Shown: one piece after another, positions 9,481 to 63,550 of the stretch
How positions within the stretch are numbered: the first letter of the stretch is position 1
Layout of the letters: each line of letters starts with the position of its first letter
From: Octopus vulgaris
Lineage: Eukaryota
Direction of reading: 5' to 3'
DNA: 64,000 nucleotides
Assembly: GCA_951406725.2 (NCBI GenBank)
Contig: OX597819.1
Location: 104,718,001 to 104,782,000 of the forward strand
The notes under the pieces: model-generated
Seen by the model: only the letters and a program-made list of their open reading frames with translations
Database searches by the model: none
What the model was told of the DNA's origin: nothing
Program-made: the position numbers and the translations under genes

Positions 9481-9956
9481 ATACAAGAGTTACGGAATTG
9501 AGTAGAAAAGACCCGGGCTACATATGTTTCACAGCGAGCAGTGCCTCAGAAGTGGTAAATATCCAGGCGAGGTATATACCGTAGGCTATTCTCCAGGCCA
9601 AAGATATCCTGATTAAATGAAAATTTGCATAGTCGCAAACAGCCCTATTGAATACTACCGGTAAATGACATTGCTTACAATTCCTCATTCCTCTCACTTC
9701 TTTTTTCCTTCTTTTAATACTTATTTCTCTCTTTATATATTTTCTCTTCTACTGTGCTCTCTACATATTCTGATTGAATCTTTCATGTTTTAACATCGGG
9801 ACAATGTAAACTTTCATTTAATCAAGACATACTTGGCCTGAGAAGTAGCTTGCGGTACACACCTCGCTTGGATAATTTACCACTTCTGAGGTTTCACTCG
9901 CTATGAAACATATATGTAGGCCGGATCTTATCTACTCCATTCCGTAACTCTTGTAT
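9481..9956. repeat. fold-back element with ~155-bp imperfect inverted arms
   Basis: ATACAAGAGTTACGGAA... (9481-9635) is the reverse complement of ...TTCCGTAACTCTTGTAT (9800-9956). Confidence 0.85.
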
Positions 9957-13568: not shown

Positions 13569-13656
13569 GGGTAATAAGAATTATAGAAATTATTATTACC
13601 AGTGGCCTAGCACAAAAAAAAAATATTCAGTAGACTATATATTATTCACATAAAAA

Positions 13657-13936
13657 TATCGTGTACATTAGTACACGTTAAGAGGCTTCCAAATATGAAA
13701 GCCTTCAGTAGAAAACTCAAACCACTAATTATGGATAAATTCTCGAAAGGATTGAAAATTAAAAACGTTTACCATCAACCATGGTAAACGTTTTTAATTT
13801 TCGACCATCGTAAACGTTTTTAATTTTCAATCCTTTCGAGAATTTATCCATAATTAGTGGTTTGAGTTTTCTACTGCTCTTTCTAGCACAAGGCTTTTCT
13901 ATTTGGAAGTCTCTTAATGTGTTCTAATGTACACGA

Positions 13937-13938
<2 letters not shown>
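13657..13938. repeat. fold-back element related to the HHR-bearing unit at 41.7 kb
   Basis: Near-perfect inverted arms (13657-13775 vs ~13810-13938). The arm GTAAACGTTTTT...TTAGTGGTTTG...ACTGCTCTTTCTAG matches 41732-41805. Confidence 0.85.
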
Positions 13939-13984
<46 letters not shown>

Positions 13985-19771: not shown

Positions 19772-19775
<4 letters not shown>

Positions 19776-19870
19776 TAAATTAAAGATAAAACCACTATTA
19801 GGCAAATCATACAATGAAAAACTTAAGCTAATACATAAGATTAATTAATTTATATTATTTTAAATATATA
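19772..19870. repeat. fragment of the HHR fold-back family seen at 49460-49832
   Basis: TATTAAATTA.AGA.AAAACC.CTATTAGGCAAATCATACAATGAAAAACTTAAGC is nearly identical to 49461-49560. Confidence 0.85.
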
Positions 19871-22148
19871 TCGTAGAACCTCATTGTGAAAGATTGTTCT
19901 GACTAAACTAAAATGAATAACAACAAATCAGAAACGTATCTTTCAGCTACTACATCAGACTCCGGTGAATGCACATACACTCTCTGTGCTCATGTGTACG
20001 ACGGACATAGAATTATATTTTCTGGTATCTCTGTATTGAAGTAGAATTTACTGAGCTTCTATACCTTTTGCTTGAGCTACATCTAAACGAGCAAACAGCG
20101 AAGCCCTCCAGTATCATGTTGTTTGACGTGAATCGCTCCTTACACGCCGAAGAAAAGGCAACTGAAACTGTATAGTAAGAAATGAGATCCACTAGCTTTG
20201 AAGACTACTCTTCGAGGAATTGTGGTTAAGAAAATGCAGAAAAATGTGAAGAGAAAAAGATGATTGGACAGCAAAATGATATTGGAAAGTTAGAAAAGAA
20301 TAATGCAACAGAGTCAATCAATATGGAATAGAGTGGTGCACAGCTTGTCACGATATCATTGCTACTATACCATTAGAATATGAAGGTTATACGTGGGCAA
20401 TAAACACTTCTGAATAGAAAGTCACAATCTTTTTTATTTCCAATGTAGTACGTTCACAATATTTCAAGAAGAAAATTTAAAAAATAATCTTACCACAACA
20501 TTCATGACTAAATGTTTTTCCGAAATAGCTTTTGCATTCCTCACCTTGATGACCACATTTTTTATATTGGTACAAACGTCTGAAATACGAATTATATCAG
20601 TGAGCATTTTTTCAGAATTGTAGGAAGGATTTAAAAATTTGAAATATTCTGGATTACTTATAAAATGAGTTTACATCGCACCAGGGTGCTTCAAATATCT
20701 GCCCCGAACATCTATGCTTACATTCTGAGTGCAAACTTTCACCCCGTCTAATTTTCCTATCTGTTTTTCCTGAATGAGTTTGATAATTTCTAATGAAGAT
20801 TGGTGAACAGTAGATTGGTGACATGACTCGTACTGTGTTGAAAATCAGCTATATACTAAATAATCAACCAACAAAATGTGGGCTATTTCCCTATTATTAC
20901 ACCATTTATCATTATGATACTAGTCCGGTATTGTATCACTCAACGGCAGTACCCTATTTGAAAGTTACACTCCGAGTAACTACTTCTAGGTTTGTGCCAG
21001 CTTAGGAAGTAATAGTACTAAACAGCTGATGATATTACTTCAGATATATACATATAAACATGTAAATATTAGATTTAAAATTACTGTAAGAGAAGTAAGA
21101 AAGTATATTTACTTGCAGTGGCCCGAAACCATGGAAATATTAGGACATCTTGAATCATACGATACAGTGCAGTTGCTCGCCATAAAATCTCCTAGAAATT
21201 TGACATTATGTTATTTATGAGCGCTTCCAAACTTCTAACACAATGCAACATAGATTAAAACAGTTAATTCTATTCTGAATTTTTGCTCCTTAAAACCCTC
21301 CACAAATACCGTAAAGCATTCCTTAATGTTCTACCTATTCTGTAGCCGGATACCTTTTCGATGACTTTAATCATATCAACAAGTTCAATTTTATTTATTT
21401 GTATTTTTATACGTACCTTGTGAAATGTTTGTTTTTTACAATTTCTTTATTGGTTTACGGTGCAGATATACAGTGGCGAAATGACAGCCTACATAGAGGG
21501 TGTCAAAAATGTTTTTTTATTATTTATCTTAAATATAATTATTTCAAATTTTTGCCACAAGACCACTGGTACCTATTTTATTGATGAATTCTTAGAATGC
21601 ATCATGAAAATTTATAATTTATATATGCATGTTTGTGTGTTAAAGTGTGTGTGTAACTGTATAAGAGGACATACATTCGGTTCGAAATTCATAACACCTG
21701 CTTCAGCAGCATTTTATTGATGAATTCATAGATTGCATCATGACAAAAAATCCGCTATCTTTATGTGGTTTTAAACAAACAAAAGTGTAATGTTCGAACA
21801 TTTAAGTTGTCCTGCTCACCACATTATATTGAGGCAAATGAAGTTATCGAAAGAATCGTAGGATTTAGAAAGGCCGATAGTAAGACTCATAAAGGTAAAG
21901 TGAAAAAACTATCCAATGCCCCCGCTATTTTAATTAGCTTATGGCCAGAAATGGAGGATTAAGGAAGATAATCATACGGTAAAAGCGGAAAACTAAGAAT
22001 AATTAAAAGACAGAAAGTTCTCAGGAGAGCATTGCAGATAGACATCAAACAAGGGATCCAGTTTTCGCCGTTTATCCTACACTAGAGCACGTACGTATAT
22101 ATATATTTTATTACATGTATATATATATTTTATACATGTATATGTATA

Positions 22149-23411: not shown

Positions 23412-23910
23412 TATGTATGTATGTATGTATGTATGTATGTATGTATGTATGTATGTATGTATGCATGCATGCATGTATGTATGTATGCATGTATGCATGC
23501 ATGCATGCATGTATGTATGTATGTATGTATGTATGTATGTATGTATGTATGTATGTATGCATGTATGTGTGTGTGTATATATATTTATTTACACACAAAC
23601 ATATTTATACACACACACGGGGGCATTGGATAGTTTTTTCACTTTACCTTTATGAGTCTTACTATCGGCCTTTCTAAATCCTACGATTCTTTCGATAACT
23701 TCATTTGCCTCAATATAATGTGGTGAGCAGGACAACTTAAATGTTCGAACATTACACTTTTGTTTGTTTAAAGACTTGTTTTATTTATATTCCTGAGTGC
23801 CATACTAATACAATTGTTTGTTTGTATTCCACCTGCCTTCGTCTTTTGTTTATTTTAATACAAACAAACAATTGTATTAGTATGGCACTCAAGAATATAA
23901 ATAAAACAAG

Positions 23911-23948
23911 TCTTTTACGTTTCGAGCCTACGCTCTTCAACAGAAAGA
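23911..23948 (-). ncRNA. minimal Penelope-type hammerhead-like motif (CUGUUGA variant)
   Basis: UCUUU-CUGUUGA-A-GAGC-GUAG-GCUC-GAAAC-GUA-AAAGA, adjoining a ~58-bp-arm hairpin (23771-23914). Confidence 0.55.
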
Positions 23949-37080: not shown

Positions 37081-37927
37081 TTTCTCTCCTTCCTTCCTGA
37101 GCGTCCAATAATACTATATTTGTTCCATGTCCTCGCGTTGTTGTGTTTTCTCTATGTGTTTTCATGTTTGGATTAACTTTATATATAGAGAGAGAATACC
37201 AAACGAGTTCCCTATGGATACCGTATTTATTACAAGTCACGAGTTGTAATAAATACGGTATCCATAGGGAATGAGTTTGGTATTTTATTTATTACACACG
37301 AATAAACGACCATATTTTATTAACCCAATAACTAAATTCTTCACATCGTGTTGAAGCGCGCATGAATACAGCTTGATTTCACGTCAGTGACGTCACAATG
37401 TGTAACTGTAAAAGATGTCATGCCGCAGGAAGATAGTCCGACTTTATAGCGCTAAGTTTTCAGGTGAAATGACTGATAACTGATGACTGTTTAACATTTT
37501 GTTAACATTCAAGTTCACGTTCAAGAAATACATAACACAGATTGAATCTTCAATAACTTTAATAATACTCAAACCTGTTTTCGAGTAGCAATGTCAGTCA
37601 GAGTAGAACAGAGGAAATATGTTGTGATTTTTTTGGCAACAAAAAATTGAATTACCACCAGAAATGTTTATATTTTATGTGTATATGACTTTAAGTGATA
37701 TCTGGTATAAAAAAGATAGTATGTTTGTTTAATTACATGGCTACATTCTACCTGCTCGTGAAAGTAATGAATGAAGTTTAGTTGTAACTTATGAATGACA
37801 AAAGTAGTGCCGTCACCGTGACCTAGGGTCATCACCATGGATTGACCAATCAGAAGCAGCGCTCACAGTATCTGACATATGTTAGATACCAAAAATATCT
37901 CAAAGTGTTCTCACTCACATGTGTGTA

Positions 37928-39944: not shown

Positions 39945-40496
39945 TGTGTCTGTGTGTGGGTGTGTGCCTATACATGCGTACATGTACGTATGTATGTGTG
40001 TGTGTTTGCATGTGTATGTATATATGTGTGCGTATGTATGTATGTATGTATGTATGTATGTATGTATGTATGTGCATCTGTATGTACGTATCCTGCATAT
40101 TTATGTGCTTTCCTGTCCGTGTTTGTGTATTTTCTACGTATGTGTGTGTGTGAGCTTGTGTTTATTTATGTATGCACCTCTGTCTCCCTGTGTGTGCATA
40201 TCTGTGTGTGTGTTATGTAACTATGTACCATGTTTGTATGTATGGATGTGCATCTTTATATGTGTGGATCCGTGTCTCCATATGTGTCTGTTCTTTTAAC
40301 CTATGTACCTATCCGTCTGTATGTTGATCTGTTTACTTACATATCTAAATGCTTACATACAGAAATAAAAAAATGAAAAAATAAAAAATAAGAAATATAA
40401 AAATAAAAAAATATAAAAATATAACAAAAGCAAAACATAATAATGATTTTAAAAAGGGCATACACACACACACTCACACCCACATACATATATACA

Positions 40497-41270
40497 TTTA
40501 TCAACCACATCTCCAGCTATACCTACACCAATGGCTACACCTTGAACCTGCATGTAAAGTTTTTTATTAAACTTTACTATGTGGTTTTTCAAGGTGGTTT
40601 TTACGCTGGCCCCTATTGCATATGCAATCATTTCCCTCACTTGATTGTTGTTCTCAGGGTTTTGGGTGGGTGCGGTCCAGCCACTCCAGCGCTCTGTGGT
40701 GCTTTTCTTCACCGCTGAAGTGATCGTGGGTGGTCTACCTCTCTGTGACCTGGTGGGGAAGAATTTACTAAGGTCAATGTCATCTAAATAGCTATTGTCA
40801 TAGCATAGTCTGAGGAGGAGGCCCAGTTCCCTGGTGTTGACCTTACGGAATTCCACTTCACTCTCACAGATTGCTTGAATGCATTTCTCCACAGCAAAAT
40901 CTATGTCTATAGATGGGTAGAGTGAAATTACATCCATACTACCCACTATACAACCTGTGAGGTCGTTGGTGTGGTTGCAAGTACTGATTTTACTGAGGAG
41001 ATCTTCTGTACTCATACACACATCCGGAGACAAATCTATGAGAGGTCGCAATACTTGTGAGAGGAAGTAGGACAGTCTATAGTTGCTGGAGATGTTTGCT
41101 CCGCAAACTGGTCTGGTTGGGGGCCCTGCGACAGGATTTATGTAGGGTTTGTGGTCTTTGCGTAACCCGTATAGTGTAGGAACATCATTGTTGGATGTCT
41201 GGAAATTGTGTGCTGTCCTTTTTGTAGGTTGGAGTATGTTGTACCACATTCCCATGTGTGCATTGAGGTG
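40497..41270 (-). mobile_element. Penelope-like element reverse transcriptase fragment
   Basis: LYGLRKDHK, PTRPVCG, SMDVISLYPSI (motif A) and YMQVQGVAIG (motif B'). Truncated by a (CA)n tract before the YxDD motif. Confidence 0.8.
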
Positions 41271-41276
41271 TATATA

Positions 41277-41947
41277 CATGCCTCGAGTATATATGCTATA
41301 ACTTTTCAAAATCCACCACACTCGCGCGGTTTTCTCAGCAGTAAATATAAACTGCCCATTTAATTTCAAAATTAGCCAAAAAATCATTAATTAATAAATT
41401 TTAGGGTAACAAAAAATTCTAGAAAAATTCTCTAGGGTAGCAAAAACTTCTAGAAAAAATTTTCTAGAATTTTTTGCGACCCTAAAATGTATTAATGATT
41501 TTTTCGCTAATTTTGAAATTAAATCGGCAGTTTATATTTACTACTGAGAAAGCCGCGCGAGTGTGGTGGATTTTGAAAAGTTATAGCATATAGACTCGAA
41601 GCATGGTTATTATCGCCTGCTTCGTGACTATATGGTAGTCCTTGGCTTTCTGCTGAAGAGGCACGCCAGTCATAAATAAATTTATTTTATTTACAAAAAA
41701 GATTGCCGAAACTATGCATAGTCCAGAAAGGGTAAACGTTTTTATTTCTCTTTCCATTTCAGAATTACAATTATTAGTGGTTTGGAGTTTAACTGCTCTT
41801 TCTAGTGAGTCGGATGTCCTATTATGGCCATCCCTTATGCGTTTGAATGTATATTACATAGTCTATTGACAATTTTTTCTTTCTCACTTGACCGCTGGTA
41901 GCGGAGAATTTTTCTAGAAGTTTTTGGTACCCTAAAATTTATTGATA
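41277..41947 (+). mobile_element. ~450-bp pLTR/retrozyme-like unit with terminal direct repeat and inverted partial copy
   Basis: TTTTCTAGAA.TTTTTG..ACCCTAAAAT recurs at ~41460 and ~41909. 41277-41430 is the inverse of ~41460-41605. The unit contains an HHR. Confidence 0.75.
41646..41730 (+). ncRNA. type I hammerhead ribozyme (complete consensus)
   Basis: CUUUCUG-CUGAAGA-GGCA...UGCC-GAAAC-UAUGCAUA-GUC-CAGAAAG: 7-bp stem I, G-C closed stem II, palindromic ACUAUGCAUAGU stem III, GUC cleavage site after 41723. Confidence 0.9.
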
Positions 41948-42427: not shown

Positions 42428-45400
42428 ACCTCAAGGAATCTACCTCCAACTACTTGTTCAAGAACTCTACCTCCCACAGGTCACAAAGTTCGCCAAAACC
42501 TCAGCAAACTATCATCTACACCTCTCACAACTCACACAAGCACCCACACACCCACTCGAAACCCCGTCATTTGCCGATATTCTCTCCGCTATAGATTATG
42601 CACTGATAGAGACTGCAAGTTCACCCATTTACCTGGGACAGAAAGCTCTATCCCCACAAACTACAACAGCCACCACCATAATACATACTCTATTACAACA
42701 CCACCACAACCACCAATATCTCAAACAAGGAATCCCCAAATCTGCCGCTATTCCCAGCGAGAAAGATTGTGTATGCACAGGGATTGTCCCTTTATCCATC
42801 TCCCGGGGACTCGTCGGACAAATGATAATAAAAATAAAAATAACGGCAAAAAAACATATAACTCATATAGAAATAACCACTCATATAAAAATAACCACAA
42901 CAAAAGTCACCTACAGTTCCCTAGACAGGAAACTTTTTCCTCTTTTGTAGCTATAAGGAATCTAGCAAAAGAACTGGAAAAAAAACATCCGAGCTATCAC
43001 CTACCACCATCCACCACTATCACCCCACTGCACATGCCATTAAAAAGCAAACATAAACAAAACGCCAAAACTATTAAAACCATCCACTCTCACCTCAACA
43101 TTTTTGCTTAATGCCCAAGACATCAGTCCTTCCACCAATACTCAAAAATGGAAGTTAAAATTCCTGGAGGACTGGGTCGATGCCTATCCAAACCACATCC
43201 CTTTCTTCGTCCTCACTGAAACCCATCATAGTAACCTCCACTTGGAAGCCGGGGTGAAAGTTAAAAATTTCAAAGCCATTAATGCTGATCGTGCTGGCAG
43301 AAGAAAGGATGGGACTGCCGTTTATGTTCTTGATTCATTCCCAACAGAGACTTGTGACCCCCTTCGGTCAGACACTGACCATGGGTTTTCACCTACAGAG
43401 TTACCCTCTGAGGCACAAGTCTGGACAAGGTTTTTTTTTATGGAAGACCAGCAGTCGCCCATGCATACCGGCCTCCCCTCTCCACGTCACCGATGTTGTC
43501 TAAGGGAAAGGCAAGGGTCGATACAGCTTGGCACCTGTGACGTCGCAACTCATTTCTACAGCTGAGTGAACTGGAGCAACGTGAAATAAAGTGTCTTGCT
43601 CAAGAACACAACACGCAGCCCGGTCCAACAGAGACTATGGACATATTTTCTAATGGATACTGCGAAACAGTCGCTGTATTCAGTCAAACCAACAACTTAA
43701 TAGTAGTTGGGCTCTACAGACTACTCCAAACGCCCCTACCATGTTTCAAGGAATGCCTCAACAACATAAAGTGTTTCCTCCAGCAGTGTCAACCTGACAA
43801 CATCTTAATGGTGAGAGACTTCAACCTTCCCGGGGTTGACTGGTCTACAAACAGTGTGCCGCCAGGTTCTTCTCTTTGAACTCCTGACAGGGAGGCAGTG
43901 GAATCGCTTCTTGACTTCATGGATGATTTCTTCCTGTCCCAACTTGTGCTCGAACCAACAAGATCTCACAAAAAAGTCGTAGACTTAATTTTCAGCAATC
44001 ATACTGACACTATCCACAATATTGCAGTGGAGAAAGCTCTACTCTCTGATCATGACATGGTTCTCTGTGATCTGAGATTTCACCGGCCAAAATACAAAAC
44101 AAACGTCATCCCTCTTGTACATCCATTTGACACTATGGATTTCCACAACGCAAACTGGGAAGCGATCAGTAATGATCTTGAACAAGTCGATTGGTCCTTC
44201 ACGCACACATACACACCCACTAACATCAAAAAGTCCTGGCAGTCATTTGTAGACACCATTACCAACATATGTGCAAAGCACACCCCATTAAGATCTGCAA
44301 ACAAATCTAAGTGCAGAATCCCTAGAAATAGAATAACTCTCATCAGGAAAATTAAAAGAATTAACAAAAAAATCAACAAGCTAAAATACTGGCAACAGCA
44401 ACACACCAACCTGACTGCCATCACGTCACTAGAGATTGAAAAACATAACCTCCAAAACAACATGATGTCTATCATCAATAGTCAGAGAAGAGCTGAAGAG
44501 TCCTGGGCCATTGAGAAGATCAAACTCAATTCCAAAGTGTTCTTTTCATTTGCAAAAAAAAAACACGAAGTCACTGGCTCTACTGTTGGCCCTCTGATTG
44601 ATGAAAATGGTACTCTTCAAGACAATGCCAAAACCATGGGAGAGATGCTGCAGAAACAATATTGTTCTGTTTTCAGCAATCCTTATATTACTGATCTGGG
44701 TTGCATCAGTGATGTTACTCCCCTATACACTTTATCGGACATAACCTTTGGCGCAATAAAAGAAATGAAGCATAATTTAGCAGTAGGTCCCGATAGGTTC
44801 CCTGCTTGTGTCTTGAAGATGTATCAACACCAACTTGCACCCCCCTCTAGCCAATCTGTGGCGGAACTCACTGGATGCTGGATATATAGCAGAAAACCTA
44901 TACCAGTCTGTTGTCCCAGTTTTCAAAAAAGGAAACAAATCGCTTGCCGTGAATTACCGTCCAATCTCACTCACCTCTCATATCATTAAGGTATTTGAGA
45001 GAGTGCTGAGATCGCAAATGACTCACTCCCTTGAGAGTCATAATATGCTGAACTCCAACCAGCATGGATTCCGTAATGGAAGGGATTGCCTGACGCAGCT
45101 ACTGCATCATTTTGATGATATTTTGAGAGCCTTAGGAGAGGGTTCCAACACTGATGTTATCTACCTTGATTTCATCAAGGCCTTTGACAGGGTTGATCAT
45201 AAGAACCTTTTGAGAAAGCTGTCCAATATTGGTGTCACTGGAAAGCTGCTGCAGTGGATCAAGTGCTTCCTGTCGAACAGAACCCAACATGTTGTAGTCG
45301 AAGGAGTCAAATCCAGCCCAGCCAAAGTCAGTAGTGGTGTCCCACAAGGCACTGTGTTGGGCCCACTTCTCTTCATCATCTACATTAATGACATTACTGA

Positions 45401-46402
45401 TATCATCAATCACAGTAACATCAGAATTTTCGCTGATGATTCCAAGCTCCAGAAGGTCATCAATGGCGTGGATGACCGGATAAGCCTTCAGTCAGACCTA
45501 CTTGCTGTTGTCCAATGGGCGGAAAAGAACAACATGTTGGTAAACGAAGACAAATTCGAACTGATCCACATTGGAAGGGAGGACGCTCTGAAACTCCCAT
45601 ACTCCCTTCCTTCTGGAGAAATTCTCATAGCGTCTAACAACATCAGAGACTTTGGAGTAACTGTGGACAACAACATAAGCTGGGCTACACATATAAGCAG
45701 CAAAGTTGATATGGCCCGCAGAATGTGTTCCTGGATTCTCAGAACCTTCCAGACGAGAGATTCCCACACCATTATCCTTTTCTTCTCCACTTGTGCCCGA
45801 CCCCACCTTGAATACTTCTGTCCATTGTGGTCTCCCTACACGAAACACAATATCATGAGAATTGAAGCTCCCCAAAGGTCAATCACAAAAAAGATAGATG
45901 GCATGTCAGACCTCGACTACTGGGGTCGACTAGAAAAGCTGAAACTGTATTCACTCCAACGACGCCGTGAACGCTACATTATCTGTATTATGTGGAAAAT
46001 ATTCCATCAGCACTGTCCAAATGATGTTGGCATCACCTTTAAAATACATCCAAGTCTTGGACCACATGCCATCCGTCTACAACAAAAATCTGAATCGTAT
46101 CTCATAAAAACAGTACGGCACAATTCTTTCACCCCAATTGGACCCGCTCTCTTCAACATTATACCAGGACAAGTCAAAACAGAAACTGACCACACAAAAT
46201 TCAAGAAGTCTTTGGACAAATTCCTTCAAACAGTCCCGGACAAACCATCCACACCCGGATATGTCTCCGCAAACAATAACTCTCTGCTTGAATGGGCCTT
46301 GGTGCCCAAATCCTGAATTGAAAGACTTCGCCAGGTGTTGCTATTAAGTTAGACATGGCCTGGGCCAATACTGACCAAAACCTTTCTAAGTTATTCTAAG
46401 TT
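42150..46402 (+). mobile_element. near full-length CR1-type LINE: ORF1 with two CCCH fingers, disrupted ORF2 (APE plus RT)
   Basis: ORF1 has CRYSLRYRLCTDRDCKFTH and CRYSQRERLCMHRDCPFIH. ORF2 has LTETH, DFNLP, LSDH, YRPISLTS, GVPQGTVLGP and FADDSK. Tail is (TTCTAAGTTA)2. Confidence 0.93.
43353..43624 (-). mobile_element. 5'-truncated SINE inserted in the LINE endonuclease
   Basis: 12-bp TSD CCAACAGAGACT at 43341-43352 and 43625-43636; homologous to 54716-55056. Confidence 0.92.
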
Positions 46403-47521: not shown

Positions 47522-47631
<110 letters not shown>

Positions 47632-47669
47632 GAAAGAAGGTTTGAAAACGCAATTTAAAAAATGTTTAT

Positions 47670-47714
47670 TTACTTTACCGGTTTCACTCTTTGGAAAATG
47701 ATTGTCAAAAGTAA
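47670..47714 (-). ncRNA. decayed hammerhead motif (duplicated at 57717-57761)
   Basis: UUACUU-UUGACAA...GAAAC-CG-GUA-AAGUAA: 6-bp stem I, palindromic ACCGGU, core two transitions away from CUGACGA. Confidence 0.45.
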
Positions 47715-48319
47715 CATGTAGAAGTTTGATTGCGTTAATTATTGGTTGTTACAAATTGCTACATTACATATATACAGTCTTTGGTAACAGCGACATGTTA
47801 AGGACATAAAAAAGTTCAACAAGTTCCTTAAAATATTGGGCACAAAGGATTACTACATAAATAATCGTTCTCAAGGACATGCTTAAGATAGTTTCCAGAA
47901 GGAATTGATATTGGTATTGGTATTGTATCTGTATATTCAAACATGCACAGAATATTGGTTGACACAGAGTACTACGATCCATATAAATATACATTCTTTG
48001 GCGACAAGAGCATGTTGAGAATATAAAAAAGTTTAACAAGCTCATTGAAATAATGGGCACAAAAGATTACAACAAATATATTATACATTCTCAAGATAAT
48101 TTCCAGAAGGAATTATTAAAAAAGTTCAGTATACACGTACAGAATATTATGAGTTCAAAAAGATTTACATTATAATAGTAGTGAAGCTAAAACTAACCTG
48201 TCCGCTATGGTAGCGTAAAAGGAGGAGTAATGTGGAACTGAAAAGAATTTACCCTTTTTTTGTCTCTCCTTCAAGCATCAATGATTTAGGGGTCAGGATG
48301 GGGTGAGTGTGTGTGTGTC

Positions 48320-48363
<44 letters not shown>

Positions 48364-49141
48364 CATATATATGTGGAGTGAATAGATGTGTCTGTGTGTC
48401 TGTAAGACTTGGTAGGATGGTGTGTCCGTTTGTCAACCGCGTGTGTGGTTGTCTTGGTGTTGTGTGTGTGTGTGTGTGTGTATGTATGTGTGTGGATGGC
48501 ATTTGGCATGGAGCTGCGTGTGTATATGTGTGTCTGTATGGAGGTGAGATTGGTGTGAGTGTGTGCATATACATGTATACATGTGTTTGTGTGGGGGGGG
48601 GCTGTTTTTGATTGGTTCCAGGGTGGTGTAAATAGATGTGTGTTATTTAAAGAATTTTTTGGGGTAGGATGGTGTGTGTATATGTGTGCCCGTTTGTGTG
48701 TGTGTATGTGTGTGGTTAATGTTTATTAGTGTGTTGCGTGTGCGTTAGTGTGAATGTGTTTGTTCGTATGTGTGTCCATGTCTGTTGGGTGTATCTGTGT
48801 GGCATGTGTGTATATGCGTTTTGCGTGTGTTGGTATTGAGTATGTGTTTGTGTGTGTGCGTACATATGGTGTGGGTGTACGCGTCTTTGTGTGTGTATAT
48901 ATATGTATACATGTGTCTACGCGTGTGTGCGGGCCATACATACACACAACATATATATACATATACATATTATACATATACATTACACACACACACACCA
49001 TACTTATATATACACCACACATACACACATACAACACATATATACATCTAATATACACACACGCAATATACACACACACAACATATATATATATAATACA
49101 CACACACACATATATATATATGCATATATATACATGTACGC

Positions 49142-49225
<84 letters not shown>

Positions 49226-49459
49226 TTATATATATGTATATATATACATATATATATATGTATATATATATATGCATATATATATTTATATAAATATATA
49301 TTTAGACACACATATATATACAAACATATAAATGCATTTATACACATACATATATTTATAAATATATGTGTATGTATACACACTCGCACACACACATATA
49401 TGTATATGTATATATACATATATATATATATCTATACATATATATATATATATATAAAT

Positions 49460-49920
49460 ATATTAAATTAGAGACAAAACCTCTATTAGGCAAATCATAC
49501 AATGAAAAACTTAAGCCAATACATAAGATTATTTAATTTATATTATTTAAATATAACAAAATTATTTAAAAAATATAATTGATATAACACTACGATCGTT
49601 TCATGGCTGTTAATTTCTTTAAATTTTCGAGTTACAGTCATTCATCAGGTGGTTTAAATATTTTTCTGATGAAAGAAATTAACAGCCATGAAACGATCGT
49701 AGTGTTATATTAATTATATTTTTCTAATAATTTTGTTATATTTAAATAATATAAATTAAATAATCTTATGTTTGGCTTAAGTTTTTCATTGTATGATTTG
49801 CCTAATAGTGGTTTTGTCTCTAATTTAATATAATATAATATTTTACTATAAAATTGGATTCAATCCTAAATCTGATTTTTCCCTATAAGTTTGGATTTAT
49901 TCCCTAATATTTATTATTAT
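49460..49920. mobile_element. fold-back pLTR-like insertion in (TA)n carrying HHR motifs on both strands
   Basis: ~160-bp near-perfect inverted arms (49460-49620 vs 49672-49832); absent from the paralogous site near 59520. Confidence 0.85.
49588..49651 (-). ncRNA. type I hammerhead ribozyme (intact core)
   Basis: CAC-CUGAUGA-AUGACUGU...ACAGCCAU-GAAAC-GAUC-GUA-GUG with palindromic ACGAUCGU stem III. Confidence 0.82.
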
Positions 49921-49925
49921 ATATA

Positions 49926-49957
<32 letters not shown>

Positions 49958-50250
49958 GATATATATACGTATATAAATGTGTGTGTACAAAAATGTGTGT
50001 ATGTATGTATATATGTATGATGCATGCATGTATTTATAAACTTTTTTTATATGTCCGTGTGTTTATGTTTTATACTATTTGTGTTCATTAACTGTCATCA
50101 TCGTCATCATCATCATCATAATCATCTTTGTTATTATTGTTTATTTTTATTCTTTATTCTACTGTTACTACTTTTACAGAGATTAGTTATATTAGTGGTA
50201 GCTACTGTTATTGTTCCTTTGAATGTACTTAGGGTTCTCGTTGCAGTTAC

Positions 50251-50326
<76 letters not shown>

Positions 50327-50327
50327 G

Positions 50328-50880
50328 AGTGAGAGAGCAGTGCATGCCATTAAAGTGACACTGGGGTAAAATATACGAAGCCCAGTATACCCATCATTAC
50401 CCGTCTGATAAGGGTACACTAGGCACATACATCACAACCATATGTGCGCGACATGGTGATCTCATATCAAGATAAACAGCACATGATCTTGCAGGTGGGG
50501 CCCACTTAGAATTTTCTTCAGGTCGAGTAACCCATCCTGCTCAAAAGGTCCCTGAATAAGGGTTGTTTAAGGATGTTGAATGAAACACCCATGTTTCCAG
50601 AGGTGAAGTATTCAAACCCCAAAGAATCCCTCTCAACACATGGCTATGATGCTCCCCTACTACTTCTGCTCGTGATCAGAGATGTACATATCGTCAGCCA
50701 CTAAGGGACATGCTCAACTGGTTACGGTCAAACAACTGACAAGCAAATCTGTGGTATCGAGCAGAATATTTGCTGTAGCCCATCTTTTATACCAAGACAA
50801 AACAATGTACATGATAACACTTCTAATCAGTTAAGATCAGAAGCCATGAGAGCCACTGCCTGGTACTGTATCAGGGCATT
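50328..50880. mobile_element. ~550-bp non-coding element inserted in (TAA)n, probable non-autonomous retroposon
   Basis: Complex sequence precisely bounded by (ATT)n tracts with no ORF. Classification is inferred from the target. Confidence 0.55.
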
Positions 50881-57620: not shown

Positions 57621-58366
57621 TTGAGCTGGGTACTTGATCCTAAATCCTAAATATAAATATAAATATATATATACATACGAAAGAAGGTTTGAAAATGCAA
57701 TTTAAAAGATGTTTATTTACTTTACCGGTTTCACTCTTTGGAAAATGATTGTCAAAAGTAACATGTAGAAGTTTGGTTCCGTTAATTATTGGTTGTTACA
57801 AATTGCTACATTACATATATACAGTCTTTGGTAACAGCGACATGTTAAGGACATAAAAAAGTTCAACAAGTTCCTTAAAATATTGGGCACAAAGGATTAC
57901 TACATAAATAATCGTTCTCAAGGACATGCTTAAGATAGTTTCCAGAAGGAATTGATATTGGTATTGGTATTGTATCTGTATATTCAAACATGCACAGAAT
58001 ATTGGTTGACACAGAGTACTACGATCCATATAAATATACATTCTTTGGCGACAAGAGCATGTTGAGAATATAAAAAAGTTTAACAAGCTCATTGAAATAA
58101 TGGGCACAAAAGATTACAACAAATATATTATACATTCTCAAGATAATTTCCAGAAGGAATTATTAAAAAAGTTCAGTATACACGTACAGAATATTATGAG
58201 TTCAAAAAGATTTACATTATAATAGTAGTGAAGCTAAAACTGACCTGTCCGCTGTGGTAGCGTAAAAGGAGGAGTAATGTGGAACTGAAAAGAATTTACC
58301 CTTTTTTTTTGTCTCTCCTTCAAGCATCAATGATTTAGGGATCAGGATGGGGTGAGTGTGTGTGTC

Positions 58367-58422
<56 letters not shown>

Positions 58423-58529
58423 TGTGTGTGTACATATATATGTTGAGTGAATAGATGTGTCTGTGTGTCTGTAAGATTTGGTAGGATGATGTGTCCGTTT
58501 GTCAACCGCGTGTAGGGTTGTCTTGGTGT

Positions 58530-58568
<39 letters not shown>

Positions 58569-59871
58569 GTGTGGATGGCATTTGGCATGGTGCTGCGTGT
58601 GTATATGTGTGTCTGTATGGAGGTGAGATTGGTGTGAGTGTTTGTGTCCTTGTGTGTGTGTATATACATGTATACATGTGTTTGTGTGTGGGGGGCTGTT
58701 TTTGATTGGTTCCAGGGTGGTGTAAATAGATGTGTGTTATTTAAAGAATTTTGGGGGATAGGATGGTGTGTGTATATGTGTTCCCGTTTGTGTGTGTGTG
58801 TGAGGATGTGTGTGGTTAATGTTTATTAGTGTGTTGCGTGTGCGTTAGTGTGTATGTGTTTGTTCGTATGTGTGTCCATGTCTGTTGGGTGTATCTGTGT
58901 GGCATGTGTGTATATGCGTTTTGCGTGTGTTGGTATTGAGTATGTATTTGTGTGTGTGCGTACATATGGTGTGGGTGTACGCGTCTTTGTGTGTGTATAT
59001 ATATGTATACATGTGACTACGCGTGTGTGCGGGCCATACATACACACTACATATATATACATATACATATTATACATATACATACTACGCACATATATAC
59101 ATCACACACATACACACCATACATATATATACACCACACATACACACATACAACACATATATACATCTAATATACACACACACAACATACATATATATAA
59201 TACACACACACATATATATATATATGTATATATATATACATGTACGCGTATATACATATATATATACATATATATAAGTATATATATGTATATATATACT
59301 TATATATATGTATGTATATACATATATGTATGTATATATATATGCATATATATATTTATATAAATATATATTTAGACACACATATACATACAAACATATA
59401 TATGCATTTATACACATACATATATTTATAAATATATGTGTATGTATACACACTCGCACACACACATATATGTATATGTATATATACATATATATATATA
59501 TCTATACATATATATATATATAAATATATATATCTATACATATATATAAATATATATATATATCTATACATATATATATATACGTATATAAATGTGTTTG
59601 TACAAAAATGTGTGTATGCATGTATATATGTATGATGCATGCATGTATTTATAAACTCCTTTTTTTATATGTCCGTGTGTTTATGTTTTATACTATTTGT
59701 TTTCATTAACTGTCATCATCGTCATCATCATCATCATCATAATCATCTTTGTTATTATTGTTTATTTTTATTCTTTATTCTACTGTTACTACTTTTACAG
59801 AGAAAAGTTATATTAGTGGTAGCTACTGTTATTGTTCCTTTGAATGTACTTAGGGCTCTCGTTGCTATTAC

Positions 59872-59944
<73 letters not shown>

Positions 59945-59945
59945 T
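57621..59945 (+). repeat. local segmental duplication, copy 2
   Basis: Matches 47491-50327 from TTGAGCTGGGT to the (ATT)n tract. Confidence 0.93.
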
Positions 59946-62900
59946 TTCAGTAGTTTTATTTTTATAGCGTGCTTTCACTTCACTACCGAGCGCAGCTCTG
60001 TGTGCCTTAGGTATATGCTGTGATTTGTTGTGATGCTCTGATGGTTATTGTATGGAAAGTCTTCTGCGTAGGATGTGTGCAGTGCCTAGTAGTGCAATTT
60101 TATGTATGTTATATGTGTTTGTAAGTCCTGGTGTTTTTGTTATGAATTTGTCTGAATATTTTTTATCATGCCTAATGCACCTACTATGATAGGAATTGTT
60201 TCTGTTTTTAGATTCCACATTCTGGTTACCTCTATTTCCAGGTCTTTGTATTTTGAAAGTTTCTCCATTTCTTTTAGAGATACGTTGTCATCTGCCGGTA
60301 TTGATACATCAATTAGAAAGCATTCTTTTTCTTCATGATCTCTGACAACTATATCTGGTCTGTTGGCCTTAATTTCTCTATCTGTGTGTATCGGCATATC
60401 CCAGAGTATGGTTGCTTTCTCGTTTTCTGTGACCTTTTCTGGTGTGTGCCTATACCATCTTTTTTCTGTTGTTATTCCATAATGTTGGCATAGCTTCCAG
60501 TGTTTGTAGGTTCCAACTCTGTCATGTCTGTGAATATATTCCTTCTTAGCCAGGACTGGGCAGCCAGAGATAATATGATTTATTGTTTCTTGTCCATCTC
60601 CACATATTCTGCAGTTACTTGTTATATTTCTTTTCATTACATGCTTTTGGTAATTTCTGGTGGGGAGGCTTTGGTCTTGTGCTGCAATTAAAAATCCCTC
60701 TGTATCTGCTTTGAATCCTGAGCTTCTCAACCATTGCTGGGATTGTTCTTTGTCTATTTCTTTTGCGTTCAGTTTAGTCCAGTATTTACCATGAAGGGGC
60801 TTTTCTTGCCATCATTTTATCATGGTTCGTTGCTGTTCTATTTTTAGTTTGGATTTCATTTGTTTTATAGCTTTTGTTGTTTCTTCATCTTCTTTTTCTT
60901 CTTCATATTTATTAGGTGGTATGATTTCTTGTTTGTATTTATCAGCTTCCTTAAATATTGAGAACAGTTTTTTGTTTTGCTCGTGTTTTGCCGCTATTTG
61001 TATCAGTTTTCCTTCCTTCTGAAGTAGATATTTTTGCAGTCCTATGGTGGTTATTTTATAGTAGTTTTCCAGCTGTATAAGGCCTCTACCACCTTCTATA
61101 CGTTGTATATATAGTCTTTCTATATCAGATGCATCCTAGATCCTGTCATTATTTTTCTTGTTTTTCTATCTATTTTGGTCAGTTCATTTAGTGTCCAGTT
61201 AAGGATATTGTAGCTGTAACTTATAACTGGGACAGCTAAAGTGTTAATACCTATTGTCTTGTTTTTAGCATTGAGCTCTGTTTTTAGTATTGATCTAACT
61301 CGTCTATAATATTCTTTTTTTATTTTCTCTTTCATTTGTATGTATTGTGTCTTATCTAGTTCATGGATTCCTAAGTATTTGTAAGTTTGGCTTTGGTCTA
61401 ATTCTTTTATTTCATTGATTTTATCTAGTGTGATGTTGCTACTCTTAACTAGTTTTCCTCTTTTCATGGTTACTTTGGCGCATTTTTCTAATCCAAATTT
61501 CATATCTATTTCTTTGGTAAATCCATGAACTGTCTTTAATAGCGTTTCCAGCTGTTTGTCATTTGCAGCGTATAGTTTTAGGTCATCCATATATAAAAGG
61601 TGGCTGATCGTTTTGCCGTAACATTTATATCCGCATCCAGTTCTATTTAGCATATCAGATAGAGGTGACAGTGCCAAGCAGAAAAGGAGTGGAGAGAGCG
61701 TGTCTCCCTGGAATATTCCTCTTCTAATGGGGATGGCTTTGGTTTTCATGAGTCCTTCTTTTGTTTGGAGCTGTAGCACTGTTTGCCATTTATTCATAGA
61801 GTGCCCTATGAATTTTATAATTGTTGGTGCTACTTTGTTAATGGCTAGTATTTCGAAGATCCATGTGTGGGGGATGCTATCAAACGCCTTTTTGTAGTCG
61901 ATCCAGGCCATACTGAGGTCTTTCTTCTTTCTGTGGCTGTCTTCAGTTATGGCTTTATTAATCATTAGTTGATCTTTACAGCCATATGAGCCTTTGCGGC
62001 ATCCTTTCTGCTCTTCTGGAAACAGGTTGTTTTCGTTCAGGTGCTTGTTCAACCTTTGCGATATCACTGCAGTAAATGCCTTATACATTGTAGGGAGACA
62101 GGTTAGTGGTCTGTAGTTTTCTGGTTTTGCTGTCTCATTTGATTTGGGAATTAAGATGGTTTTCCCCCTTCGTGAGCCATTCAGGCATTGTCTCTGGCTC
62201 GCTAGTATGTTGTTAAAGTTTTCAGCCAGCTTTTTGTGCATTCCTGTTAGATATTTCAACCAGAGGTTGGGGATCTTGTTATGCCCAGGTGCCTTCCAGT
62301 TGCTTAGTCTTTGCAGTGCCTGGGTGACCTCTTCAGTTGTTATGGGGGTCCAAAGTTGCTCAGATGCTGAGTTTGTTGTTTTAATACTCCTTTTTTTTTT
62401 TGGTTGCTCGTTCGCCGACCATATTTCTCTCCAGAATTCTTCCACTTCTTCTGCTGTTGGTGCTGCAGTGATTTCTATTTTATTTTTGCCAAGTTCTTGG
62501 TAGAAATTTTTGGGGTTGGAGTTGAACTTTTTGTTTTGTTCAAAGAAGCGCTGGCGTTTCTCGTACCGGCGGATCCTTTGTACTTTGGCAAGGATATCTT
62601 GCTTCAGCTTTTCTTTTATCTCAGGTAAATCTTTTTCTGTGATGTTATATTTGCAGAGTATTTTTGTTTTCTTTTTGTTGCTCAGTAGCGTTGATTGTCT
62701 ACTGATTTCATTAAGAATCGACAGATCTTTTCTCATTTTTTGTATTTTGTTTTGGATGTTATTTATCCACAGGGTTTGTTTGGGTAGTGGTACTCCTGTT
62801 TGGATGGGTTTGAGTGAGTATCCAGCTTCTTTTGTGGCTGCAGTGGCTGCTGCGTATACTAAGTCATTTAGCTCAGTGATATCGCTTTTTGTTTCAGTGG

Positions 62901-63550
62901 CTATTAGTTCCGTGACGGCTAGGTTTATGCTGTTTATAATTGGTGTTGTTGTTTCGTCTATTTTGATTTTTGGGAGGTATGGTCGGCGGTCCATTTTGAG
63001 CTCTGTGGTTTTCAGTTCTTTGATTATTTTACTTTTTATATTATCATAATCATTAGGCTCCCCTTCGTTGTTTCCAGCTTCTAGATTTATGTCGCTTTCT
63101 TTCTTATTTATATGTTTGTTCGCCGTGTTTTGGCTTGCTGTTTGTCGTGTATTATTATGCATCCTTACGTTCTGGGTTTGTTGTTTTTTGTTTACATCGT
63201 GTTTGTTGGGAATGTTACGTTTGTCTTCGTGTTTTACTGTTTCAGTGTTTATATTATTGGGCATTGTTGTCTGGCTTCTATCTACATTTTCCTGACGTAT
63301 TTTTTTCTTTTAGATGTTCTATTTCTATTTCTGATATTTTTTTGCGTTGAGAATGTATCTTCGTACGTTAGCTAGTTTATTAGGGTTCATTGCTGTATCC
63401 AAGTCTATATTTATGTTATTTTCCTTCCATATTTTATATGTATGTGTTGTTGTGTTTTCATTTTTTGGGTAGAGCACTGCTGTGAAGTATGCGTGTAGGA
63501 TAGAAATGTATTCCTCACGTGTTCATTTATGTCTTTTGGGTTTTATTTGC
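59946..63550 (-). mobile_element. Dong/R4-clade non-LTR retrotransposon (RT plus restriction-like endonuclease), frameshifted
   Basis: YRPLTCL, EEQKGCRKG, WIDYKKAFDS, GIFQGDTLSP, LYMDDLKL, CCHC finger CRICGDGQETINHIISGC, RHD and RPDIVV..IDVSIP. The 3' end abuts (TAA)n. Confidence 0.95.

Follow-up and report, generated by a model that had tools for sequence, protein, structure and literature searches.

About 455 bases (49464-49917) in the TA-rich tract of a duplicated unit of the Octopus vulgaris genome are very probably the product of the enzyme of a Penelope-like retroelement (PLE), consisting of two head-to-head, 5'-truncated 3' ends of a multi-copy hammerhead repeat with a tail on one side only. 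The overall pattern is the published anatomy of PLE insertions, of which the insert is a tidy example; the initial annotation of this DNA had left the element type unnamed. Positions refer to the window, that is, the whole stretch of 64,000 nucleotides analysed (GCA_951406725.2, contig OX597819.1, positions 104,718,001 to 104,782,000 of the forward strand), and its features are collected in Table 1.

Table 1. Features of the window discussed in the text
Feature	Position	Strand	Remarks
Left arm	49459-49663	-	5'-truncated 3' end of the family; ends at the short terminus, no tail
Type I hammerhead motif of the left arm	49586-49653	-	Core complete; predicted cut between 49591 and 49590
Apex	49641-49673		8-bp inverted match around a 17-base loop
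Right arm	49666-49832	+	Second 5'-truncated copy, opposite orientation
One-sided extension (tail), about 85 bases	49833-49917	+	Runs to the long terminus; shared across the family rather than local DNA
15-base direct repeat, left copy	49449-49463	+	Candidate target-site duplication; inside the TA-rich tract
15-base direct repeat, right copy	49918-49932	+	Directly 3' of the insert
Duplicated unit, copy 1, filled	47631-50330	+	Borders of (TA)n and (ATT)n
Duplicated unit, copy 2, without insert	57678-59951	+	Matching site at about 59508-59550
Solo copy of the short terminus, 97 bases	19772-19868	-	94% match; adjoins (TA)n; without ribozyme
Second hammerhead family	40452-41943	- (RT fragment)	Hammerhead, fold-back and RT fragment
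Second-family type I motif, canonical-looking	41653-41723	+	7-bp stem I, 10-base palindrome
Second-family fold-back	41277-41605
Fold-back beside (TA)n	13636-13960		79% like the second family downstream of its ribozyme; no ribozyme core left
LINE	59951-63309	-	RVT_1 (E 3e-32) and zf-RVT; 3' end adjoins the (ATT)n tract ending copy 2
LINE remnant with RT ORF	43044-46316	+	RVT_1 (E 1e-28)
LINE remnant with RT ORF	181-2517	-
Inverted repeats	9481-9956, 23770-23915, 37195-37284		No alignment to either ribozyme family
Exact 155-base inverted pair	21770-21924 and 23618-23772

Anatomy of the insert

The element had been described as a fold-back insertion, and two head-to-head arms are indeed present; however, it is not a plain palindrome, since 49833-49917 have no mirror, and this one-sided extension had been missed. 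The outer 5 bases of the left arm overlap the target, two extra T (49664-49665) separate the arms, and over 161 shared columns (the last, boundary column being left out) the arms differ by four substitutions and one 1-base gap. In the right arm a deletion of 22 bases, with microhomology of 2 bases, comes after CUGAUGA (at 49666), and next comes the 3' half of the ribozyme, with GAAACGAUCGUA at 49690-49701; the comparison of the arms thus bears out the earlier claim that the mirror arm keeps these two words and lacks the 5' strand of stem II, which falls within the missing 22 bases. The arms contain no long ORF in any sense frame. The tail also holds, at 49845-49910, three units of loose mutual similarity spaced at about 20 bases, along with an 11-bp hairpin predicted by folding, and these could be a protein-binding site.

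An inverted, head-to-head 5'-truncated copy, a tail on one end, a hammerhead and a (TA)n target, by which EN+ PLE insertions are recognized, are all found here. In the portions of the literature available, PLE insertions are described as carrying at their 5' end a 5'-truncated copy in inverted orientation, together with a tail of 30-40 bp on one side and a bias toward (TA)n (PMC8557442), head-to-head inverted pLTRs are accompanied by a tail and a target-site duplication (TSD) of 8-10 bp (PMC3846280), and pairs of PLE hammerheads lie on opposite strands, 100-700 bp apart (PMC4209133). With the EN+ PLEs (Penelope/Poseidon, Neptune, Nematis and Hydra), as presented in the accessible parts of PMC8557442 and PMC3846280, the insert shares the head-to-head truncation, the one-sided tail and a hammerhead near the 3' end, as well as the (TA)n target, partial tandems and a possible short TSD; it differs from them in the length of its tail (about 85 bases against the published 30-40), in carrying no ORF and in the 22-base deletion of its mirror ribozyme. 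The RT ORF of the insert's family was found neither in the window nor in a metagenome scan, and the upstream motif of the family had no match in the window.

A multi-copy repeat family

Sequence words from the insert were matched in 20 of the 24 sequencing runs listed (8 studies, 3 organisms); no RNA run is listed among those with matches, and the run richest in them may be the source sample. In the four of these 24 runs that were examined (3 organisms), 8843, 2477, 2799 and 2745 contigs aligned to a 469-base reference at 88% likeness, which makes the insert a member of a multi-copy family; contig depth was not used as copy number, and the shallow coverage at 49664-49679, common to the four runs, was given no weight as evidence. 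The tail is covered by contigs in all four runs and is therefore family sequence, and one listed contig (record 32 of run X7, spanning 49804-49877) bridges it to the arm with at least 31 letters on each side. The family has two termini, with and without the extension: among the loose ends listed, those at 49837 run into TA repeats in 42, 18, 24 and 27 contigs of the four runs, and further ones near 49911 were seen in 9 and 7 contigs of two runs. The targeting of (TA)n, proposed earlier, is supported both by these TA loose ends in four of four runs and by the fragment at 19772, which adjoins (TA)n; that fragment, formerly placed at 19772-19870, is confirmed as a relative by its match over 97 bases. 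A metagenome scan with a 28-base ribozyme pattern returned no locus.

Family contigs continue upstream past 49663 with other letters, so the apex of the insert is a truncation point. Joints between the arms were also found elsewhere in the family. The main list shows 15 of 18 joints, 12 of those shown leading from left to right arm, and one more from a supplementary table brings these to 13, two opposite-strand rows, one deletion at the arm-tail border and two back-steps having been set aside. The 13 other joints listed lie at scattered places; each is represented by one contig (one of them in two runs) at 88% likeness with sides of 21-41 bases, so they are soft, and joints are visible only inside the 469-base reference. 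The back-steps (e.g., 49901 to 49785) fit partial tandems. A MITE or fold-back DNA transposon was rejected on account of the 85 unmatched bases outside the right arm, the two termini and the scattered internal joints.

Among the contigs listed in the four runs, none spans the insert's own apex, and a divergence of 1-2% is within the allelic range in some octopuses; both would agree with an artefact, either a fold-back hairpin of a read or two haplotypes assembled side by side as a duplication. An artefact is nevertheless very remote: a read fold-back was rejected because 4 substitutions, 1 indel and the 22-base deletion distinguish the arms and the tail is one-sided, and a haplotig duplication because the 2.7-kb unit, present twice, accounts for only 2.7 kb of a 10-kb offset and the flanks differ.

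The hammerhead motif

The left-arm motif, read on the minus strand, comprises CUGAUGA (49648-49642), GAAA (49602-49599), the palindrome CGAUCG (49598-49593) and UA (49592-49591). CUGANGA, GAAA and UH thus occur in order with three stems, as in type I hammerheads: stem II is formed by 7 pairs interrupted by a single mismatch and closes a 23-base loop, stem III is palindromic, and stem I has only 3 bp before a mismatch. According to the parts of PMC4209133 available, the complete core, the long stem II, the short stem I and a stem III of 2 bp, whose palindromic 4-base loop lends itself to dimers, are shared with the type I hammerheads of PLEs. The motif departs from the metazoan minimal-hammerhead consensus of PLEs given there in the A-U that directly follows CUGAUGA, in place of G10.1-C11.1 and with no extra base after position 9, and from the other hammerheads of that source in the length of loop II and in the incomplete mirror motif.

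The initial annotation called this ribozyme intact, which holds for the core bases; against it stand the 3-bp stem I, the A-U pair at 10.1-11.1 and the lack of an Rfam match. At the gathering score, Rfam gave no match in the whole window, hammerhead included, and a search of 49300-50100 up to E 10 gave 58 weak matches, none to a hammerhead; most were to microRNA models on hairpins and TA repeats, and a microRNA reading was rejected. A loose core pattern matched the window 8 times against 3.6 expected, a number reached in 5 of 100 shuffles, so the core words alone are weak evidence. A descriptor with an obligatory palindromic stem III matched the window 2 times and found nothing in 200 windows shuffled locally, and in the family contigs none of 19 positions in core and palindrome is listed as variable, against 7 of 39 in stem II and its loop (p 0.051).

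In the insert itself the ribozyme is predicted to be dead rather than self-cutting, since in a read-through transcript the mirror arm would take up the entire core in base pairs: folding of the full transcript places every core base in such a pair (predicted probability 0.86-1.0) and gives the native stems a probability of 0, against about 0.06-0.12 for the left arm alone.

Origin of the two arms

For the insert's family we infer a series of steps that begins with a GIY-YIG endonuclease, which would nick AT-rich DNA on each strand, the two nicks lying about 15 bases from one another. Reverse transcription would then start at two sites of the RNA, the long terminus at about 49917 and the short terminus at about 49832. 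Both cDNA copies would stall, after 205 and about 250 bases, one of them skipping 22 bases across stem II, and the stalled ends of the two target-primed copies would be joined head to head. Since each of the arms extends across the predicted cut site, the RNA that served as template was probably uncut. The accessible text of PMC11167929 reports that the purified Anolis PLE (the Poseidon element PAc) cuts and extends both strands of AT-rich DNA in vitro, that it starts reverse transcription at two sites bounding the tail, and that uncut RNA is its main substrate. Similarly to PAc, as far as it is described there, the insert shows two termini, an AT-rich target, arms copied through the ribozyme and an ATG at the start of stem II; unlike in PAc, the frame from this ATG closes after 32 codons, so either the ORF did not start there or it has decayed.

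The main rival to the two-start mechanism is the self-priming model, proposed for PLEs in PMC3846280 (as far as available), in which a single cDNA would have folded onto itself through the 8-bp stem at the apex and served as its own template, the endonuclease later trimming one tail. The inverted match with its loop at the apex would suit this model, and where the family is polymorphic the arms carry matching subfamily letters (e.g., T at 49498 and 49511, and no AT insertion at 49550/49736, common variants in the contigs), so both were likely copied from one template. Each arm, however, has sequence missing from the other (22 and 15 bases in the left, the tail in the right), so that simple self-copying needs the extra trimming step, and many joints of the family have very unequal arms, some of them beginning inside the tail; self-priming is possible but rather doubtful.

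Another reading considered takes the family for a non-LTR retrozyme, tandem and non-autonomous, of which the insert would be an inverted, truncated insertion. Its non-coding, AT-rich nature, the type I motif with palindromic stem III and the absence of a long sense-frame ORF from the arms agree with this, as do the back-step joints, which fit head-to-tail junctions, and the non-LTR retrozymes of PMC7229834 and 10.64898/2026.07.22.740005, as far as these texts are accessible, are likewise non-coding, low-GC repeats with a type I hammerhead. The insert differs from them in being inverted, not tandem, and in having one complete ribozyme: a tandem unit with two consecutive ribozymes is absent here, the partner of the complete motif being inverted, and the 30 letters shown upstream of the ribozyme in the family contigs do not lead into tail sequence. 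The retrozyme reading is accordingly unlikely, and since retrozymes have been proposed as PLE derivatives (in the available part of 10.64898/2026.07.22.740005), its mechanism would be that of PLEs.

A second hammerhead family and other elements

In a second hammerhead family of the window, a direct repeat recurs at a distance of about 445 bases (41460-41495 and 41905-41945). The arms of this family diverge from their shared sequence at one common point (41277 and 41605), one running into an RT fragment and the other toward the ribozyme. The fragment is 66% identical to an Octopus vulgaris protein and matched no Pfam family; among 7 relatives of it, Pfam gave a weak RVT_1 match in 3 and GIY-YIG in none. 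By eye, the relatives show what we take to be a cysteine linker and a GIY-YIG-like C-terminus, as in Neptune and Nematis, and for want of a Pfam family or GIY-YIG match the PLE label of the fragment rests on these motifs. Both ribozyme families end, just before TA-rich DNA, in a 14-base motif identical at 13 of 14 positions (49902-49915 and 41930-41943), a resemblance chosen after the fact that hints at a related enzyme for both. In the fold-back at 13636-13960, two direct starts and the inverted arm begin 2-7 bases before a word that lies 7 bases past the cut site of the second ribozyme. These starts fit run-off at a cut end, at one locus whose own ribozyme is not in the window and where the repeat could be slippage.

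The ribozyme and the position of the apex

The initial annotation had the fold-back apex fall at the ribozyme. This is so for the insert, and as a rule of the family it does not stand, both arms ending in the ribozyme in only 1 of the 13 other joints listed. That the ribozyme sets the apex, by RNA cutting or by stalling of the reverse transcriptase, would agree with the position of both arm ends within 15 bases of CUGAUGA, with the 22-base skip across stem II, with one joint of the same family (49592) 2 bases from the cut site, and with the sister-family fold-back at 13636-13960, whose starts lie near the position matching the cut site of the second ribozyme. Against this, both arms of the insert pass the cut site, by 73 and 36 bases, and among the joints listed there is no enrichment, left breakpoints falling in the ribozyme in 3 of 10 (expected share 0.41, p 0.84; three beyond the reference edge excluded) and right breakpoints in 2 of 13 (expected 0.16, p 0.64). 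In addition, in the part of PMC11167929 available, ribozyme mutants leave insertion in vitro unchanged. Because both arms stop away from the cut site, a ribozyme cut was rejected as the origin of the insert's apex, which instead marks a truncation; a ribozyme-set apex in general is improbable.

Relative age of insertion and duplication

Alignment of the duplicates confirms the earlier observation that the insert is present in copy 1 and absent from copy 2 (at about 59520-59560), and all the coordinates first given for it proved correct. Simple repeats being masked, the duplicates differ at 35 of 1732 positions (2.0%, CI 1.4-2.8), at 7 of 676 (1.0%) in a unique block and at 56 of 2049 unmasked. 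The unit contains an internal repeat of 167 bases at 74% (47740-47906 and 47953-48114), and may itself be a dispersed mobile unit. The empty site is less simple than had been described: the 15-base word that flanks the insert occurs there twice, 11 bases apart, so the site is not clean. For this reason, and because it lies inside a microsatellite, the 15-base repeat is not a proven TSD; the two words in copy 2 fit a TSD with slippage, a small target deletion or the footprint of a loss.

The insertion had further been held to be recent and to have moved after a young duplication. Its youth is upheld, since letters private to it against the family majority (49581, 49724 and 49885, with two substitutions and one gap deduced from the comparison of the arms) amount to about 1%; the order of events is not shown by either the divergences or the likelihoods. 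The arms differ at 4 of 161 columns (2.5%, CI 0.7-6.2; Fisher p 0.57 against the masked duplicates), and in these comparisons their divergence is not lower than that of the duplicates (p 0.24-1.0), while the likelihood ratio of insertion after against before the duplication is 0.13, 0.42 or 0.91. Near-precise loss of insertions is rarer than gain, and because of this prior we lean toward an arrival of the insert in copy 1 roughly when the duplication took place or soon after.

An insertion older than the duplication has a smaller, still appreciable chance; it would have been lost from copy 2 by excision of the palindrome between the flanking repeats, or copy 2 would derive from an empty allele or a third paralogue. 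The divergence of the arms, no lower than that of the duplicates and of the unique block, the likelihood ratios and the footprint-like retention of both 15-base words in copy 2 speak for it; on the other side, errors of reverse transcription would inflate the divergence of the arms, and slippage indels between the copies are so many in the TA tract that duplication of a 26-base unit is an easy alternative to a footprint.

Implications

The insert's family was not found in the literature searched, mainly the main texts of freely accessible papers, and Repbase or supplementary files may contain an octopus consensus; nor did this search find an account that joins the hammerhead, the head-to-head or inverted junction and the cleavage site. 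The filled and empty paralogues, 10 kb apart, could serve as a PCR marker. The in vivo role of the PLE hammerhead is still open, according to the accessible part of PMC11167929; the insert argues against cutting, and the positions of the apex across these abundant families could test that role.

In octopus, loci with the potential to form long double-stranded RNA make up an unusually large share, and hyper-editing is strong (PMC5625713, in the portion available); fold-back PLE scars are a candidate source of such RNA. It is conceivable, at long odds, that the hammerheads of octopus PLEs fix the stop of reverse transcription and the fold-back, and so mass-produce polymorphic hairpins of 160 bp that feed A-to-I hyper-editing; within that reading, reverse transcription would have stalled in the insert and run off at the cut site in the fold-back at 13636-13960. 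If true, hammerhead-fixed stops would be a genomic read-out, not seen before, of PLE ribozyme activity in vivo.
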